Below are positions 12,570 through 59,994 of a DNA stretch of 64,000 nucleotides, one piece after another. The notes below the pieces were generated by a model. It saw nothing but the letters and a program-made list of their open reading frames with translations, made no database searches and had not been told where the DNA came from. Source of the DNA: Octopus vulgaris. Taxonomy: Eukaryota. Both the position numbers and the translations under genes were made by a program. Each line of letters opens with the position of its first letter. The first letter of the stretch is position 1. The DNA is taken from NCBI GenBank assembly GCA_951406725.2, contig OX597816.1, forward strand, positions 142,290,001 to 142,354,000. Reading direction: 5' to 3'.

Positions 12570-13580
12570 ATTTACATTTGGAGTTCAAATCTCACTAGGA
12601 CTGCCTTTGATTTTTGTCCTGATGAAATCAATATAAGTATCTTTAAATTATTTGGTTGATTCAACTAACTACAAACCTTCTTCAAAATATATACTTTGGC
12701 AACTTAGATTTTTGTTTTTCACTATTTAGACCAAAATGTAATTTTCACTTAATCATTATTAGTAATGCTATTATTATATGAAGGCAGTTGACTGACACAA
12801 TTAGTGGATTGCTCAACAAAATGCCCTATTATAATTAGTTATATTTTTGCATTTTGAGTTCAAATCTTGCCAAAATCAGTCTCAGTATAGTTGATAAAAT
12901 AGAGCACTTGCCATATATACTATAAACAACTGTTCCTTCCTCCAAAATGGCTGGCCTTGCATCCACATTAGAAATTATTATTACTATTTTTATTCTTATT
13001 ATTAAGGCAATGAGCTGGCAAAATCATTAGCATATTGGGCAAAATGCTTCATGGTATTTTATCTATCTTTACATTCTGAGTTCAAATCCTGCCAAGGCCA
13101 ACTTTGCCTTCCATCCTTTCAGAGTCAATAAAATAAGTACCAATCAAGAAATGGGGTTGATGTAATTGGCTTACTCTCTGTCTCAAACCTGCTGGCATGG
13201 TGCCAAAATTTGAAATCATTATTGTTGTTATATTTTAGGGTAGTTAGGTGATGAGCTGGCAGAATTATTTGCATGGCACACCAAATGCTTAGCAGCATTC
13301 CATCTGTCTTCACATTCTGAGTTAAAATTCTGCCGAGGTCAACATTGCCTTTCATCCTTCCACAAAGAATTATATAGGACAGTAGTGTGGCAGAAACCAA
13401 AGAGAGCATTGAACACAATGTTTTAAGCAGCTTGTGTATTTTCTAAATTCAAATCATACTCAGTTTAACTTTGCTTTACACCTCTGTAATTATGGAAAAT
13501 GCACAAGTATTGTTATAAAGTGAATATAATCAACTACAGCCTCCCTCAAAATTCATAGCCTTGTATCCTCTTCCAATTTA
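12570..13580 (+). mobile_element. Head-to-tail cluster of SINE family A
   Basis: About five units with GAGCTGGCAGAATC..TAGCA, GAGTTCAAAT and ACTTTGCCTTTCATCC, with ATT-rich spacers. Confidence 0.8.
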
Positions 13581-15364: not shown

Positions 15365-16725
15365 AATGGGGGACACTTATTAAGCTTTACTCTTGCAAAC
15401 CAATTAATGATAGATAATATCTAGTTTGCACACCTCAGTAGCATCTTATCACATGGTACTCAGATGCTGTCTTCATGGCCAATGAAATGAATTTTTTTTT
15501 GTTTGATATCACTGGTCCACTTGTGTATGCAACTTTCACTCATATGGTGGTGAAGCTGGTAGCAAGAATGGCTCAAATTCCTTTCCGGTACAAGCAACAC
15601 TTTATATAAAGCTGAGGACCAACAAATTGTTCAAAAGTTGACCAAAACATATTGTAAAGCTAAAATGCAGTAACACCGCAATGTGTTTCTTACATTGCAA
15701 AACTGCTTCAATGGCTTGGATACACCATAATGAACTAAACCTTAGGCTGAGAATGAGTGGCACAACCTCAGTTATCATTTGCAAGAAGCAGCAATTCATT
15801 TTTCCTTTTCCTTCTCACCCTCAAATCCTATACTAAATTCACTCTTTTCTCTTCAGAACTGCAATTCTCTGAAACTGCCTCATTTGCCACACTTTTCTAT
15901 GAGAAATTAATCTTCAGATGTTTGAGTTAAACACCAACTATGTTAACTTCAGCAGTATGATAAAGCTTGCAAATGTTGGCTTTAGTAATCAAAAAGCAAT
16001 CCTATACTAGAATGATAATTTCTTTTCATTTCAAGTTCAAAAATCTGTATAGGTCTTTATTATAATTAGCATCTTGATTTTAATTAGCAGAAGATTGCAA
16101 TGTTGTTTGTAATGATTACGTTGATTACCATGACATCATTGTAGTTTGAGTAGATTTCTCTCTATTCAGTTTACCACTAAATTGCAACATGCTCACTGAT
16201 GCTTTTCACCTTTTCTGAGTAATTTAAGGTACCAGACAATTACTTGGAGCAACTCTTTGCTTCTGTTCTCTCTCTCTCTCTCTTATTTATGCATTGGATT
16301 AACTCTTTGGTAGACTCGATGGAAGCAGATGCCAATGAACCAAGCAGCATCTCTAGAAGCCATTTTTTGTTATTATTTTAAAGGCACCATACCATCCTCA
16401 TGAACGGTATTTTAAGCTGTAAGAATAACCAAAGATATTTCCAGTTTAATGATTATACTTTGATTAGTAAAAAACTGCTTTAATTTTGTTTAGATAATAG
16501 TTGCTGGTTTTATATTGTTGACTCTTGTTTAACTTTGGCTGTAAATGGAAGTGACATAGATGATCTCAGGGTTTATTAGGACTAAAAGATAAGTGCTTTT
16601 AAGTGGGTGGGAAAAATTATACTTTAAACATATTATCCATTGTGATTGCAAGGCTGAAAGTGTTTATTCTTGTTGTTAGCTGTTTTATTATTAATCTAAA
16701 ATTATTTCCTTTCATCCTATTACAG

Positions 16726-16953
16726 GTGTGGATATTGCCCAGACATCAGTTGGCCACAACAGTGAGAATGAAATATTGGTAAATGGCTACAAGGAACCAG
16801 GTTCCTATGTACGGCACGTCCGTTATGATACAGGAATTTTAGAACTTGAAGCATTAATTGAACGAGCGACATCCTGTAAACAGTTAATTAGGTACAAATG
16901 CAACAATTCTCTTCTACTGGCTAATTGGGTAACTTTGTTATTCTGGGTAACAG
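16726..16953 (+). CDS. Nrx-IV: Duplicated variant copy of a Neurexin IV/CNTNAP exon (fibrinogen-like region); use in mRNA unknown, could be a pseudo-exon
   Basis: Acceptor tacag|GT at 16725/6 and donor CAG|gtaggt at 16953/4. Near-identical to 17632-17835 apart from a synonymous C/T (16817 vs 17723) and 25 nt (16926-16950) replacing one C, giving ...LLLANWVTLLFWVT instead of ...LLLANP. Confidence 0.55.
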
Positions 16954-16989
16954 GTAGGTGCTTTATTAATTTAGTTAATAATTATTTAT

Positions 16990-17529
16990 CTTCTGGGAAA
17001 GTTTATCCAGTTTCTTCAGAAAAATCACCGAAAGAAACAGTTTTTAAATTTTCACTCCATTCAGGTGCCAAATCATTTTCTTTATCGCTGTCGGAGCTCT
17101 TGGATTCACTGTTTTCACTTTCGGAAAATGAAACATCAGATTCATTATCAAATACCACATGCTTTTTTTTTTCAGTCATAGAGTTAGATTTATGAAGGTC
17201 TTCAGTAGAAAATCCTTCGAATTCTGACTCGCTGCTTGATATAATGAAATTCGTATCCCTTTTTTGTCAGAATTACAAATTTTGAAAACACAATAGGAAC
17301 AAATTTCGGAAAAAAATCTCCCATAATTCACGGAATTAAAATTACACTTCGATTTTTGTACAAAACTGTAGTTGAACTGTTTACAAAGTATAATACGTGT
17401 TTTCACGAATGTACTAAAGAGATTTACTCTGATATTCTCATTTAAATATGAATAGGTAAATTCGGGCGGTTTGGGGCGGCTTGGTCACATTAACCAAAAT
17501 TTTTTTCGGGCGGTTTGGTAACGAAAGGG
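16990..17529 (-). mobile_element. Truncated 5' end of a piggyBac DNA transposon
   Basis: Ends in ...GAAAGGG|TTAA (17530-17533), i.e. TTAA-CCC on the minus strand. Subterminal repeat TTCGGGCGGTTTGG at 17461 and 17505. Minus-strand acidic transposase N-terminus remnant SSSESEFEGFSTEDL...SESENSESKSSDSD...PEWSENLKTVSFGDFSEETG*. No second TIR. Confidence 0.85.
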
Positions 17530-17631
17530 TTAAACATATTATCCATTGTGATTGCAAGGCTGAAAGTGTTTATTCTTGTTGTTAGCTGTTTTATTATTAA
17601 TCTAAAATTATTTCCTTTCATCCTATTACAG

Positions 17632-17835
17632 GTGTGGATATTGCCCAGACATCAGTTGGCCACAACAGTGAGAATGAAATATTGGTAAATGGCTACAAGG
17701 AACCAGGTTCCTATGTACGGCATGTCCGTTATGATACAGGAATTTTAGAACTTGAAGCATTAATTGAACGAGCGACATCCTGTAAACAGTTAATTAGGTA
17801 CAAATGCAACAATTCTCTTCTACTGGCTAATCCAG
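17632..17835 (+). CDS. Nrx-IV: Neurexin IV/CNTNAP internal exon, fibrinogen-like region (204 bp, phase 1-1)
   Basis: VDIAQTSVGHNSENEILVNGYKEPGSYVRHVRYD...LEALIERATSCKQLIRYKCNNSLL resembles Drosophila Nrx-IV (V-G-x-x-EPGS...EALL-R---C-Q---Y-C). Sites tacag|...CCAG|gtaggt; splices in frame to 27337. Confidence 0.95.
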
Positions 17836-18914
17836 GTAGGTGCTTTATTAATTTAGTTAATAATTATTTATTTCCAATGCCCTTTCTTATGTAAGAGATG
17901 CATGTAGTTTGTTATGGGGGTTTTTCTCTCCAATAACCAAATATTACATTTCAGTTGTGTTTTATTTGCTAACTTGCCTGAATAAATTATTAAACACTGG
18001 AAGTATGTTTCATTTCCCTGATTCTACATGAATATCCTGTTGCTACGATGATGAAGGGTATTTAAAAAAAGAAAACAAAAACCTTACCTCTTCTTTAGGT
18101 TTTTACCTCAGACAATCAAGCTTTACCTGCCAGTTGATTCTGCAATTAACTGGTTAATGTATTCACAACCCACCACTACATTGAAGTTTAATCAACACCA
18201 GTGAAACATCTTTGTTACTATTTCATTGGTACAAAAGTATTAAATAAAACTACCTTTTTTTTTTTGTTCTTTTTCATTGTCCCCTATCCTTCTTAGCTCT
18301 GCTGAGGATTGAGAGGAATTTCAATGATATTGATACAATTTATTTGGTGTTTGCAATGTTTTCTTCCTTTGTAGCTTTAAAGTAACCCTAGCTTTTCTTA
18401 AGCAGTCTAACTGTAAGTAAAGGAAAATAATAAAGAAGTTTAACTGAATTGTCAGGAATTAAGCATGAGTTAATCCAAAGTGGAAGTCATTGGGTGATGT
18501 TTTTGATTCTAATAAAGAATTAAAAGTTTGAAGATTTTATATCATTTCAGTATCACAGCAGTAAGATTCTGTTCCACAAGAAAATAATGTACATTATAAA
18601 AGAAATTTATTTAGCACTGATCAAATATTGATCTAATATTTACATTAAGAAAGCTGCTCAACTGACTGCTCAATTTTTCTCTCATTGGCAACTTTCACAT
18701 CCTCGCACAGCAATGTGTTATATCTTCGGTCTCTTCTCTTGGTGGTACAATAGATTTAACTATTTTAAACCTACTGAGCATTTCCTATCTACTACCACCC
18801 AAACTAACTTGGTTCCCTGTTAAATAATAGAATTTTTTACTTAGAAGACTATTTTCCTAGGAATTCCCACTAAATATCAACTTCAGCAATTTTTAGACAC
18901 CCTTTTACACTTTT

Positions 18915-19581: not shown

Positions 19582-19770
19582 AAGGCGGTGAGCTGGCTGA
19601 ATCATTAGCACGCCGGGCAAAATGCTTAGCAATATTTCGTCTGCCATTACGTTCTGAGTTCAAATTCCACACTGTTACGCACTGGGGTCATGTAATCGAC
19701 TTAATCCCTTTATCTGTCCTTGTTTGTCCCCTCTATGTTTAGCCCCTTGTGAGCAAAAAAGAAATAAATA
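19582..19770 (+). mobile_element. Relatively young SINE family A copy, internally deleted
   Basis: GGCGGTGAGCTGGCTGAATCATTAGCACGCCGGG...GAGTTCAAATTCC; tail matches the reverse complement of 44656-44760. Confidence 0.85.
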
Positions 19771-24635: not shown

Positions 24636-25014
24636 CTATATATAGACATGCTCCACACATGTACATGGGCATATTTGCATATATATATATATATATTCAT
24701 GTGCACATATGTATATATTGTTCAGATATGTCACTGGCAACTCTGTGTCATTTCCCTTGGCTCATTTTTATTTAAATTATGCAAATTACCTCAGTCATAA
24801 GTATTTTACTTTTTTTTTTATAGATGTCTATATCTCTTGACTACTGGAAATAAAGAGGATAGCTGTGCTGGTGTTGCCTATTGAGGCAGGAACACTTGTC
24901 AACAATTCTCTTATCTTCAGATAATAAGTCTCTCCTTTTCTTTAATGGCACTTCAGCTTTGGAGGATTTTTGATTTTTGAGGTTATCTTTCTTTCTCATA
25001 TTGAGGTGGAGATA

Positions 25015-25235
25015 ATATTGATTCCAAATTTTGGCTCAAGGCCAGCAGTTTTGAGGAAGAGGATAGGATGATTACATCAACCCCAGTGTTCCACTGATAC
25101 TTATTCTGTTGACATCAAAAGGATGAAAGACAAAGTTAACCTTGGCAGAATTTGAACTCAGATCATAAAGATGGACAAAATACTGCCGAGCATTTTGCCC
25201 AGTATGCTAGCAATTCTGCCAGCTCACCGCCTTTA
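25015..25235 (-). mobile_element. SINE family A copy
   Basis: Reverse complement of a full unit ending TCTGCCAGCTCACCGCC; flanked by GGTGGAGATAATATT on both sides (TSD). Confidence 0.8.
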
Positions 25236-27336: not shown

Positions 27337-27636
27337 AGGATGGTGTACATGAGACGTATGGATGGTGGGTTGGCAGGACTTACCAGCCAATGTATTATTG
27401 GGGTAAAGCTGCACCAGGTTCCAGAAAGTGTAACTGTGGGCTTGTTGTCAATGGCTGTGCTGGTAAAAGTACTACTTGCAACTGTGACTCCAATTTACCA
27501 GATCAAACAGATTCTGGATACCTTGAACACAAAGACTACCTGCCTGTTCTGGAAATGCATTTTGGTGACACTGGTACTGTGACTGACAATAAATTTGGCA
27601 AACATAAACTTGGAAAACTCATGTGCAAGGGTGACA
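27337..27636 (+). CDS. Nrx-IV: Neurexin IV/CNTNAP internal exon, Cys-rich end of fibrinogen-like region (300 bp)
   Basis: EDGVHETYGWWVGRTYQPMYYWGKAAPGSRKCNCG...CNCDSN...YLPVLEMHFGDTGT...LGKLMCKGD. Acceptor tttcag|, donor A|gtaagt. Confidence 0.97.
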
Positions 27637-54133: not shown

Positions 54134-55416
54134 TCCCTCTCCACAACTTACTAGCTTTGTATCAAAATTTGAAACCATTATTATTAAGGCAGCAAGCTGG
54201 CAGAATTGTTAGCACACTGGGCTAAATGCTTAGCAGCATTTTGTCTGTCTTCATGTTCTGAGGTCAGCTTTACCTTTCATCCTTTTGGGGTTAAAATAAG
54301 TACCAATTGAGCTCTGGAGTTGATGTAATCAACTTAGTCCCTCTCCCAAAACTGCTGGCCTTGTGTCAAAATTTGAAACCACTATTGTTGTTGTCATCGT
54401 CTCCTCCTCTGTCACCTCTTCAAAACATTGCAGGCAAAACATAGGAAATATTAGAATAAGTTTAGAAAAACATTAGTGAGAAAAATCTATTTAAAAACTC
54501 CACATTGACAATGGAATTTTATTGATGTACCTCATAAATATCAATTATTGGATTAATTTTGATTAGAGATGTTGGTGTATTTCTTTTGATATTAAATTTT
54601 AACGCACACATGCAGCTACTATATTTATGCAGCTTCAGCTACTTAATGTATACACACATCATATACACACACACACTCATTTACAAACATGCAGCCACAT
54701 CTTAGATACTCATGTGTTGTAACATACAATTGAATATGCACATATTCATACAGACACATATCTATACATAAAGATGTTTTCACACAGATACCCACCAACA
54801 ACTTGAAGTTGAGAATTTTAAGTGTTGTGTATATTTTATATGCTTCAGTAGATTTATTTGCGTTTGTGTGTTTATGATGATGATGTATGTATATAGATGC
54901 ATGTTGTGCCTATGCGTGTATCTGTGTACACACACACACACACGCACGATTAACATTATCATCATTTTAATGTCAATTTTTCCATGTTTGATGAATCAGA
55001 CAGAATTCATTGAGGCAAATTTTCTATAACCATATACCCTTCCTGTTGACAACCTTCACCTCTTTCTAAGAACATAATGTTTCTTCAAGGCAATGCCCCA
55101 GCATAGCTTAAACAAGTAAAAGGATAAAAGAATATATATATACGTGTATATGTTCCTGAAAAAAGGAGATATGAAAAGATCATCAGATTTAGACTGAACA
55201 TCCTATATAATATATGTATCATCATCATTTAATGTCTTTTTCCATGCTGGCATGACAGGGGCTAGCCAGCCTCCAGTTGTCAGTTGTGGCATGGCTTCTA
55301 TGGCTGGATGCCCTTCCTAACACCAACCACTTTATAAAGTGTGCTGGTGCAGTTTGTGTGCCACCTGCACAGGTAGGTTAATGCAACACTGGCACGAGTG
55401 CATATATATATATATA

Positions 55417-55472
<56 letters not shown>

Positions 55473-55891
55473 CATACACACACATATACAGACATGCATA
55501 TTTAATACATCTTTGATTAAAATCAAAGTAATAATGATGGAATTGTGTACACATTTATGATGAGGAATATGATTTTGTGTATGCATGTGTACACTTCTAT
55601 GTATATGTATATCTGTGTGTTTGTATGTATATATATATAATTCACACACACACTCACTCAGTTGGTAATGAACACAGGATCATGTTTGTATGCATATTTA
55701 TAAAGTCTTGTGCTCAGTTATATACAATACAGCTTTCATATTCACCCACATACAGAGATGATTTAATTAATGTGTGTGTATTGTTTATATCATGGAGCCA
55801 AAGTGAGTTGTTTTTGTCCCATCTATTGTCTGCTACAAAAGATAGGTTTACTGATTGGTTTTCTTGCTTTTTTTTTTGCTTTTTTGTTTAG

Positions 55892-55988
55892 GTGGATAAT
55901 TATGAACCTGCAATTTTTAAAGCAAATGTGGGAGACCAAGTTGACTCTATTCTTGACAAACCAGCTATCATGTACATTGGCAGAAACA
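55892..55988 (+). CDS. Nrx-IV: Neurexin IV/CNTNAP internal exon, final LamG domain (97 bp, phase 0-1); next exon lies beyond the window
   Basis: VDNYEPAIFKANVGDQVDSILDKPAIMYIGRN matches Nrx-IV VDNYEP...MYIGKN. Long polypyrimidine tract plus ttag|, donor A|gtgagt. Confidence 0.94.
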
Positions 55989-56711
55989 GTGAGTTTCATA
56001 ATGTATTAGTATGAATGTGGACTGTAGTTGGCTGAGGTGATGATGTTGGTAGTTGTATTGCAACTAGTTTTGAGTGCACATCTCTTACATGGAGAGCTAC
56101 TCTTTAAATCTGTGAAATTAAATGTCATGGTTATTCCAGTAATGATGTTAGATATTTACCTAAAAATAGAATTGGTATTTTCTGCAAGTTATATTGCTTC
56201 AATAAACTTGATGGATCTGAGTGAAAAATAGTTTCAAACATGACATTCCTCAAAAAAAAAAAAAAAAAAGATAGATTGATATATAAAGCTGCTTTCTGCA
56301 GTTAAGGGTAATGTAATTTTGAGTGGATATATCTGATATATGGGTACAGAAAAAGATGGAGATGATAATTGTACTTGGTAGCAGAGTGAGTGGTGGTATA
56401 GTCTCATATTGGTATGGATGGATTGAGGATGATACCATTGACAGGAGTATTGATGTTGATTCTGAGAATGGTAGTTTTGTAGATAGAGATGAAAATGTTA
56501 GAGATGCTATTTCTGTTAGTGTGTGGGTGTAGGTGCTGTGCAGGCTGATGGGTTTCTTTGTGTCTAAATGTTTGTAAATATGTCACTTTAATTAAACTGT
56601 AGCAACATAAATAAGTGGAGAGAGAGATGGATATTTAGGCTTAAAGATATAAAGAACAGCAAACAGAAAAGATTTTATCAATTTTTATCTCAGAATAATT
56701 TACATTTCCAG

Positions 56712-56768
<57 letters not shown>

Positions 56769-57371
56769 TTACACCATGGTCACTGTGATTCAGTAAAGCA
56801 TGAATTCATTAAACTTCATCAGAGAAGAAATCACTGTGTCAATGTTGTAAGAATACAATACAAATTAATATAAGTATACAATATTCTGTTTTTAATATTG
56901 AGTTCATTCTTATTTGTGAACTACTACACTGACAAGAATAGAAATATATGTGTATGGTTCTTCTAATTTGTGTCTTCCTTTGCTTTTAATTTCATGATTG
57001 TGATCATATAATAATGATTATCATCATCAATATTATTATCATTGCTGTCATTTTTATAATTATTTTCATCACAGTCTTTGTTCTCATCACATTATTCCTG
57101 TCATGGTCATTATTCTCATCTTAATTATAATTTTCATCACACTGATCATTTAATATTCATGTGACAGAGAGACAAACAGATATAACAATAGTGAATATAT
57201 TCTTCACTTAAAATGAAACAACCCATTATGATTTTGCCCTTGGAAAGAATCTGCAGATCCTATAACCAGTCTGATGTCTTGTGATTTCAGCCTAGTTGGG
57301 TATCATCACTCAGCTTATTCAAATATGAATGCTCTTACAGTACAGATATATATATATATATATAAATAAAT

Positions 57372-57604
57372 AAATACAAAATGGGACAAGTACGCAAAAC
57401 ATTCAAATAGATGATACAAAAAACGGACGGGTCATTCGAACCCTCTAATCTTCAGTCAAGAACCGGATCATCCTCGCAATTTCGGCTGATTCAAAATTGC
57501 TAGGATGATCTGGTTCTTGACTGAAAATTAGAGGTTCCGAATGACCCGTCCGTTTTTTGTATCGTCTATTTGAATGTTTTGCGTTCTTGTCCCATTTTGT
57601 ATTT
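57372..57604. repeat. Near-perfect ~230-bp palindrome embedded in (TA)n
   Basis: ~110-bp arms with about 7 mismatches and a ~10-nt loop at ~57483-57493. Confidence 0.95.
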
Positions 57605-57645
57605 TTATATATATATATTATTGCAGCATACGTACACCTTATTCT

Positions 57646-57679
<34 letters not shown>

Positions 57680-58907
57680 CTCATGTCTGTAATTATCAAC
57701 ATCTAGAATATATCACATGGTGGTTCAGTGCATGGATATCATCATACAAGAAACCATCAAGCAAAGTTATATTTCTTCTAAAAATATTTGTGTATCTATA
57801 GTTCTTACTTTGTCAATAATGAGTTCACATACTTTCCACATGCCATTGTTAGCATGTCGAGCGAAATGCTTAGCGATATTTCGCCTGTTGCTATGTTCTG
57901 AATTCAAATTCCACTGAGGTCAACTTTGCCTTTCATCCTTTCAGGGTCGATAAGATAAATACCAGCTGTAGGCTGAGGCTGTTGTAATCGACTCATCCCC
58001 TCCCCCAAAATTGCTGTCCTTGTGGGAAAATTTGAGACCATTATTATTATTATAACAATAAAGACAGCTAACTGGCAGAATCAATAGCATGCCAGACAAA
58101 ATGCTTAGTGGCATTTCATCCATCATTACTTTCTGAGTTCAAATTCCACCAAGGTCAACTCTGCCTTTTATCCTTCCAGGGTTGATGAAATAGGTACCAG
58201 ATGAGCACAGGGGATCAATGTAGTCAACTCTCTACTCCTCCAAAATTTCTGGTCTTGTACCTATAATAAAAAGGATTCTTCTTCTTGTTATTATTACTAC
58301 TAAGGCAGAAAACTAGCAGAATCATTAGCACACTAGACGAAATGCTTAGCAGTATTTCGCCCATCTGAGTTCTGCTCTGAGTTCAAATTCTGCTAAGTTC
58401 GACTTTGCCTTTCATACTTTTGGGGTTATTATTACTACTGCTACCACTGCAAAGGTGGCAAAATAGCAAAATCATTAGCATACCTGACAAAATAATTTGT
58501 GGCATTTCATCCATCTCTATGTTCTGAGTTCTCATTCCACTCAGGTTGATTTCACTTTAGCCAAGTACTGAAGTTAATGAAATTCACTTACCCGCTCCCC
58601 AAAATTGCTGGCCTTGTACCAAAATTTGAAATTATTGTTATTATTATTACTACTACTTCTACTACAAAGATGGCAAGCTGGCAGAATCGTTAGCATGCCT
58701 GGCAAAATATTTAGTGGCATTTTACCCGTGTTTATGTTCTAAATTCAAATGCTGCCAAGGTTGGCTTTACCTTTCATCCTTTCAGAGTCAGTAAATTAAG
58801 TATCACTGAAACACTGGGGTCGATGTAACTGACTAGTCCCTTCCCCACAAATTTCAGGCCTTGTGCCTTTAATAGAAAGGATAATGATTATTATTATTAT
58901 TATTATT

Positions 58908-59190
58908 GTCTTTGCAAAGCTTCTAACACTGGAGATGTACTACAGTGTCAGCTGTTCACTACCAGTGAACTAAGGTAACACCTCTTATTTTTCGAGCACC
59001 TTTCAGAGTATTCAAGTGGTTCCAAGCAGTGCTGTTTTGTGCGAGTGCTCCACCCTTGTTGCAGCCTCTATTTGTTCCATGTACTTCTCAAGATTTTTGC
59101 TCACTGTTCCCAGGGCTCCAATAATTATTGGTACCACTACCACCTTTTTCATCAACCAAAATTGCTTAACCTCTCAAGCTAACCTGTCAA
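58908..59190 (-). mobile_element. R4/Dong-like (RLE) non-LTR retrotransposon 3' end
   Basis: Minus strand VVPIIIGALGTVSKNLEKYMEQI...KTALLGT..IL.KVL; flanked by (ATT)n on both sides. Confidence 0.8.
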
Positions 59191-59209
59191 ATCTATATTA
59201 TTATTATTA

Positions 59210-59242
<33 letters not shown>

Positions 59243-59994
59243 GCAACATTTTTTTCTGACTTTACATTCTGAGTTCAGATTCCACCAATGCCAAATTGGC
59301 CATTCATTCTTTTGGGGTCAATAAAGTATGTGCCAGTTGAGTACTGGGGTTAATGTAATTGACAACTCCCTGCTCCAAAATTTGAGGCTTTGTGCCTATA
59401 GTAGAAAGAATTATTTTTATTATTATTGAGTGAGAGAGCAATGCATGCCATCAAAGTGACACTGGAGTAAAATATACGATGCCCAGTATACCCATCATAA
59501 CTACCCGTCTGATAAGGGTACACTAGGCACATGCATCACAACCATATGTTTATCATATCAAGATAAACAGCACATGACCTTGCAGGTGAGGCCCAGTTAG
59601 AATTTTCTTCTGGTCAAGTAATCCATCCCGCTCAAAAGGTCCCTGAATAAGGGTTGTTTAAGGATGTTGAACAAAACACCCATGTTTCCAGAGGTGAATT
59701 ATTCAAACTCCAAAGAATCCCTCTCAACACATGGCTATGATGCTCCCCCACTACTTCTGCTCGTGATCAGAGATGCACATATCGTCAGCCACTAAGGGAC
59801 ATGCTCAACTGGTTACGGTCAAACAACTGACAAGCAAATCTGTGGTATTGAGTAGAATATTTGCTGTAGCCCATCTTTTATACCAAGACAAAACAATGTA
59901 CATGATAACACTTCCAATCAGTTAAGATCAGAAGCCACAAGAGCCACTGTGTGGTACTGCATCAGGGCATTTATTATTATTATTATTATTATTT

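Follow-up and report, generated by a model that had tools for sequence, protein, structure and literature searches.

The window, the whole stretch of 64,000 nucleotides that was analysed (Octopus vulgaris, assembly GCA_951406725.2, contig OX597816.1, positions 142,290,001 to 142,354,000 of the forward strand), harbors part of a neurexin-4 gene, including two near-identical copies of one coding exon that are separated by the remnant of a piggyBac transposon (Table 1). The first-pass annotation had named the gene Neurexin IV, and this identification holds: exon copy 2 is 100% identical at the protein level to the corresponding part of Octopus sinensis neurexin-4 (P0001), and nine later neurexin-4 exons map in order across the window. 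The discoidin, laminin G and EGF domains recognized by Pfam place the protein among the Neurexin IV/Caspr orthologs, while the duplicated exon by itself gave no Pfam match. The proteins of Argonauta and O. bimaculoides have one exon copy, which ends like copy 2, and copy 2 is therefore the ancestral form. A literature search yielded no paper on exon duplication in octopus neurexin.

Table 1. Features of the duplicated neurexin-4 exon and its surroundings, in window coordinates
Feature	Position	Strand	Basis
Copy 1 (new copy), starting at TTAA, with 102 nt of intron before the exon and 36 nt after it	16624..16989	+	alignment; genome-wide match search
Neurexin-4 exon copy 1, 228 nt, phase 1-1; residues about 633-699, with WVTLLFWVT replacing Pro700	16726..16953	+	
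Patchwork templated insertion from element nt 728-780 (the half lost here), in the orientation of the remnant	16926..16950	+	
Left junction: intron to element nt 549 with 1 common base; element nt 525-535 replaced by 3 nt	16989..17005	.	
Remnant (nt 1-549, the 5' half) of a non-autonomous 1.08-kb piggyBac, with an intact 5' terminal repeat; its 3' half, including the 3' terminal repeat, is absent	16989..17529	-	family comparison
Copy 2 (ancestral position), begins at the target-site TTAA 17530-17533	17530..17871	+	
Neurexin-4 exon copy 2, 204 nt; protein identical to O. sinensis residues 633-700; carries T17723	17632..17835	+	
Next neurexin-4 exon; splice partner of the single ancestral exon in RNA-type contigs	27337..27636	+	

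The duplication is confirmed at the level of the assembly; the duplicated allele was seen in no raw read and in no contig from other runs. Pairwise alignment of the two segments agrees with the earlier description of near-identical exon copies that start at TTAA and have intact splice sites: TTAA forms the first bases of both, each has the same lengths of flanking intron, and both exons lie between AG and GT, in frame and in phase 1-1. The duplicated segment has two matches in the 2.8-Gb genome, both in the window. Two differences appear in the alignment, a single substitution and an indel of net 24 nt. The former, C16817/T17723, is synonymous (His) and lies at a CpG, as had been noted; what had been taken as a simple indel proved to be the exchange of 1 base for 25 nt derived from the transposon in copy 1.

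In a public O. vulgaris gene model (P0003), the two copies follow each other in frame, with 76 additional residues. This model is a prediction likely derived from the same sequence and is not independent of the assembly. It also departs from P0001 elsewhere, in that it is without 24 residues near 908-931, has 5 extra ones near 1194, and differs at its C-terminus, where the usual terminal motif is missing. By these sequence features, it looks like an imperfect gene prediction.

The spacer between the copies had been read as the 5' end of a piggyBac terminating at the second TTAA. Family copies and a transposase-bearing relative agree with this reading: the remnant, part of a young element, lies on the minus strand and ends at the TTAA of 17530. 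Its family numbers at least 40 copies, 95-97% identical, out of 2222 candidates. TTAA target-site duplications are found on both sides of 15 of the 16 family copies with a detected right end (of 19 loci), and short terminal inverted repeats starting with CCC are found at both ends of family copies, of which the window keeps the 5' one only. A locus with a PF13843 hit and the same terminal repeat (L048) matches element nt 1-750 at 88% and nt 749-1070 at 94%; since it matches both arms, the 1.08-kb element is an internal deletion derivative of a piggyBac element with a DDE_Tnp_1_7 transposase. The remnant differs from the family majority by 4 substitutions in 524 nt, compared with 0-10 in 19 other copies. 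For O. vulgaris, 474 recently active piggyBac insertions have been reported, and the repeat library of that study may already name the 1.08-kb family; by its calibration, the 0.8% divergence of the remnant would correspond to approximately 2 million years, which can serve as a rough upper guide only (PMC13282606). Both ends are retained in all 39 other family copies examined, and self-comparison of their flanks (88% cut-off, positive control detected) revealed no abutting duplication at any of these 39 copies, which were picked by likeness to the 5' half and not randomly.

Several other repeats were observed. Three copies of the 1.08-kb family stand out individually: L011 has lost internal sequence, L041 carries an insertion close to its 3' end, and L010 has another element end nearby. 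A second piggyBac family, represented by L044 (953-3575), L045 and L047 (C15, C4 and C29 of G000), has terminal repeats at both ends and long uninterrupted transposase frames, of 571 aa in L044 and 544 aa in L045, and is a candidate for continuing activity in this octopus. Another piggyBac (L046, G000:C13:40974350-40978390) has a 488-aa open frame, and its first 12 terminal bases are those of the 1.08-kb family; judged from this terminal identity, it is a possible transposase source for that family. The window also contains an inverted repeat at 57358-57618 (125-nt arms, 92% complementary, 11-nt spacer), likely a small foldback element or a MITE, and many copies, in both orientations, of a dispersed repeat of approximately 200-240 nt (13004-13333, 19582-19670, 25014-25233 and 54186-59361), which is presumably an octopus SINE.

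The 25 nt that distinguish copy 1 can be traced piece by piece to the element. The last six exon bases shared by the two copies equal element nt 790-785, providing a 6-base microhomology as entry point. The 9-mer 16923-16931 then corresponds to element nt 780-772, the stretch 16926-16936 to nt 738-728, and the 18-mer 16934-16951 to nt 748-731. The patch is followed by 39 nt of the gene (16951-16989), by element nt 549-536, by three untemplated bases and by the element from nt 524 onward; the left TTAA site has no element end. Among the family copies displayed (17 of 19 loci), all 17 have the 18-mer, 16 have the exon-end hexamer just upstream of it, and 14 have the 9-mer bridge. The probability of a chance match is about 1e-7 for the 18-mer and 1.3e-8 for the 19-mer made of the 18-mer and one further base, and the patch sequence occurs once in the genome. 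On sequence grounds, the 25-nt block is a patchwork of pieces copied from the element half absent at this locus, which is new relative to the first-pass annotation. Such a patch implies that more of the element than remains here was available during repair, and that the growing strand switched templates several times. Microhomology combined with a locally templated, iterated insertion is the junction type attributed to polymerase theta, and it is found here. Copying from the element via microhomology argues for aborted repair synthesis closed by microhomology-mediated end joining, a route by which tandem duplications are known to arise, and against an assembly error.

Other animals were surveyed in 8 of 24 listed runs, all compared as contigs, which show presence and not absence. 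The ancestral form was found in six of them, three genomic (X5, X6 and X7) and three of RNA type (X10, X12 and X16), and the duplicated allele in none of the eight, among which X1 and X3 did not cover the unique sequence. In X5 (organism B, 76% read), one contig runs over TTAA and the exon with no insert and continues into the intron behind copy 2. Similarly, in X7 (organism C, same study as X5), one contig spans TTAA and the exon and has no insert. In X6 (organism B, 80% read), two contigs are unbroken where the graph of a carrier would branch, and their depth ratio is 0.92, the values expected for zero, one and two duplicated alleles being 1.0, 1.19 and 1.36, respectively. One X6 contig ends one base before 16817, which hints at a branch there; as a variant at 16786 would interrupt the contig at this very point, the break was given no weight. 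The share of words ranges from 0.72 to 0.84 among the seven best-matching runs, where 0.92 is expected for a run free of the allele, so that carriers are not separable from non-carriers by this measure; with a best value below that expectation, no indexed run clearly contains the allele.

The RNA-type contigs come from three studies; in them, the preceding exon is spliced to one exon only, which has C16817 and lacks the insert, and this one in turn to 27337. Their RNA status is a guess, no listed run being recorded as RNA, and they are probably from non-carriers. The search for the insert of copy 1 in transcripts, which had been proposed as a check, returned the ancestral exon only in these three runs. 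C16817 had been proposed as a further RNA marker of copy 1. This base is present in all five other runs that cover the site, and T17723 was not seen in other runs; since C is the common allele, it cannot mark copy 1, which only the insert or the joint between the two exons can do. A synonymous T/C polymorphism was also observed at 16802, with C in X5 and X7 and T in both window copies, X6, X10, X12 and X16. The presence of T in both copies, together with the split among other runs, places the event within standing variation. Most likely, the duplicated allele is rare and neutral to harmful, rather than a demonstrated alternative exon. The public two-copy model P0003 is to be used with caution, as it differs from the single-exon form found in every other informative run.

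The locus is probably best explained by a young tandem duplication in which an in-frame second copy of a neurexin-4 exon took the place of the 3' half of a piggyBac residing in an intron. The likely route is homology-directed repair that started from a break at the element end, was aborted, and gave way to microhomology-mediated end joining; the result would probably be a rare, neutral-to-harmful allele and not a working alternative exon. The starting point would have been a full 1.08-kb element in TTAA, 102 nt upstream of the exon, with a break at the element end adjoining the upstream intron. The broken end might then have been extended by approximately 300 nt on an element-free template, via TTAA and the exon. 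Short-homology switches to element nt 790-772, 738-728 and 748-731 would have followed, then a return to the gene for 39 nt, and finally passage to element nt 549 and 524; these switches can be read in the sequence, and the enzyme performing them is putative. The break might be due to the transposase or to fork collapse, and the template might be the homolog, the sister chromatid or a copy in cis.

Element-free, single-exon alleles exist, as seen in X5 and X7 and, in two pieces, in X6. A precursor that is filled and not duplicated was found in none of the eight runs compared as contigs, a format that drops variants, with two of the runs giving no cover. Break repair between a piggyBac-filled and an empty allele had been suggested as the origin of the duplication. 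The break-repair part of that proposal is strengthened by the element-templated patch, while the empty homolog becomes one candidate template beside an element-free sister or cis copy.

Comparable repair products have been described. In C. elegans (helq-1), tandem duplications of 0.1-10 kb arise when a template-extended end does not anneal and polymerase theta joins it instead, and they bear microhomology and patchwork templated insertions, a failure of synthesis-dependent strand annealing (SDSA) (PMC8654963). The octopus locus shares with them the direct repeat of the copied stretch, the size range, the microhomology and the patchwork insertion. In contrast, it is a natural case in which the enzymes are putative, the duplication is bounded by a piggyBac target site, half an element lies between the copies, and the patch is in frame within a coding exon. 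End joining after aborted SDSA has also been reported following P-element excision in Drosophila, where a DNA transposon break similarly leads to partial copying and templated insertions (PMC2895639). That assay restores parts of the element, whereas at the octopus locus flanking host sequence was copied in place of half of the element.

Replication slippage on one filled chromosome, by fork stalling and template switching, would yield the same product with neither a transposase cut nor an empty homolog: synthesis would pass from the first TTAA to the second, copy the exon and return into the element. This origin is unlikely, though it deserves some weight. TTAA offers four bases of homology at either end of the element, the copies differ very little and both carry T16802 where X5 and X7 have C, and template switching at elements with terminal inverted repeats (TIRs) is a model for the formation of Pack-TIRs (PMC8277862). 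On the other hand, patchworks that repeat the same few bases have been described for end joining (PMC8654963), and the common C16817 in copy 1 facing a T unseen elsewhere in copy 2 fits two haplotypes, although later CpG decay would explain this difference equally well. As for Pack-TIRs themselves, single-copy members formed by gap filling resemble the octopus locus in that part of a TIR element has given way to host sequence from its vicinity and the breakpoint shows microhomology (PMC8277862). Membership of that class was rejected, as the host sequence is not enclosed by both ends and the 3' terminal repeat is absent; with one terminal repeat lost, the captured octopus exon, unlike the cargo of Pack-TIRs, is immobile as a unit. 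The main text of the Pack-TIR study contains no mention of piggyBac (PMC8277862).

An assembly artefact, in which a filled and an empty haplotype would have been merged into a chimera, is improbable. It would account for the lack of the insert or junction in all eight runs and for a best share of words that lies below the value expected even for non-carriers. However, a haplotype merge would join at shared sequence and would not create a 25-nt patch, found once in the genome, out of three overlapping pieces of the deleted half together with a second altered junction. Least probable is alternative transposition, by reversed-ends or hybrid-element insertion as for maize Ac. It produces tandem duplications and composite insertions (PMC4270019; PMC3744419) and shares with the locus a duplication boundary placed exactly at an element end, but it requires two element ends and a new target duplication (PMC4270019). 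Here, the new junction lies inside the element and not at a terminal repeat flanked by a newly duplicated TTAA, and the surroundings of the locus contain no other element end; alternative transposition is largely refuted by this junction structure.

Turning from origin to expression, the strong donor common to both exons, scored against the U1 consensus, matches 8 of its 9 positions. The insert adds two weak donors to copy 1, after 16928 and 16946, with 6 of 9 and 5 of 9 matching positions, respectively; both are out of frame and lead to stops. The intron between the exon copies is 678 nt long, the exon lengths of 228 and 204 nt are both multiples of 3, and the GT-AG sites are identical. Steric hindrance, frameshift and U2/U12 incompatibility are listed as mechanisms of mutual exclusion (PMC5740500). 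None of these blocks on double inclusion was found, and the intron length, the frame and the identical sites make all three mechanisms inapplicable. Inclusion of both exons, with 76 additional residues, is therefore the default prediction for carriers.

At the protein level, double inclusion would place these residues, with two extra cysteines, inside the fibrinogen-like domain. The native region has a confident predicted fold (mean pLDDT 95.3), and its model resembles a fibrillar procollagen C-propeptide (E 2e-8, TM 0.59), which is in line with the fibrinogen-like domain described for Caspr proteins (PMC6236484); no solved Caspr fibrinogen-like domain was among the best 60 of 93 structure matches. 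In the model, the exon supplies four strands and a helix in the middle of the domain, and both of its borders lie in loops. AlphaFold2 predicts, for both exons together, one intact domain built from copy 2, with copy 1 looped out or disordered (pLDDT 33-63), a result biased by an alignment that put conserved columns on copy 2. Copy 1 by itself would carry nine mostly hydrophobic residues in a loop of variable length, in place of a proline that 21 of the 24 aligned proteins retain. Caspr2 is sensitive to changes in its ectodomain, with retention in the endoplasmic reticulum (PMC6236484), and harm from the duplicated octopus exon is thus plausible.

It had also been proposed that the duplication may be a new alternative exon at birth. 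Under this reading, carriers would splice in either copy, and the isoform made with copy 1 would have nine residues of piggyBac origin in a loop of variable length. Tandem homologous exons of equal phase, as in mutually exclusive pairs, are indeed found here, both copies keep their splice sites and frame, and the insert falls between two strands of the model, in a loop that varies in length among homologs. In Drosophila, Nrx-IV has mutually exclusive exons 3 and 4 (PMC3245913). These fly exons lie in the discoidin domain, a placement on which a literature search gave nothing relevant. The octopus pair is similar in that it belongs to the same gene family and duplicates an extracellular-domain exon; in contrast, the Drosophila pair is old, regulated and functional, whereas the octopus copies are near-identical, lie in the fibrinogen-like domain and represent a candidate only. 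Many human mutually exclusive exons are also free of steric or U12 constraints (PMC5740500). Against the proposal, intron length, frame and splice-site type do not force exclusion, the RNA-type contigs of three studies, from probable non-carriers, hold the ancestral exon only, and copy 1 both replaces the conserved proline and gains the two cryptic donors. The proposal is improbable and gained no support from the comparison. There is likewise only a slim chance that, on a segregating allele, a single event of transposon-break repair gave a neural-adhesion exon its second copy and also diversified that copy, through in-frame piggyBac letters, into a usable isoform, so that a mutually exclusive pair was born within the species. 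If carriers were found, they would offer a direct view of how the spliceosome handles an exon duplicate that has just arisen, a stage that is usually deduced from old pairs.

Under the preferred reading, in which aborted repair of an element-end break produced the duplication, the locus would be an unusually legible natural record of a DNA transposon seeding an exon duplication, in which each switch point can be read and in which the repair itself wrote new in-frame codons out of transposon DNA.
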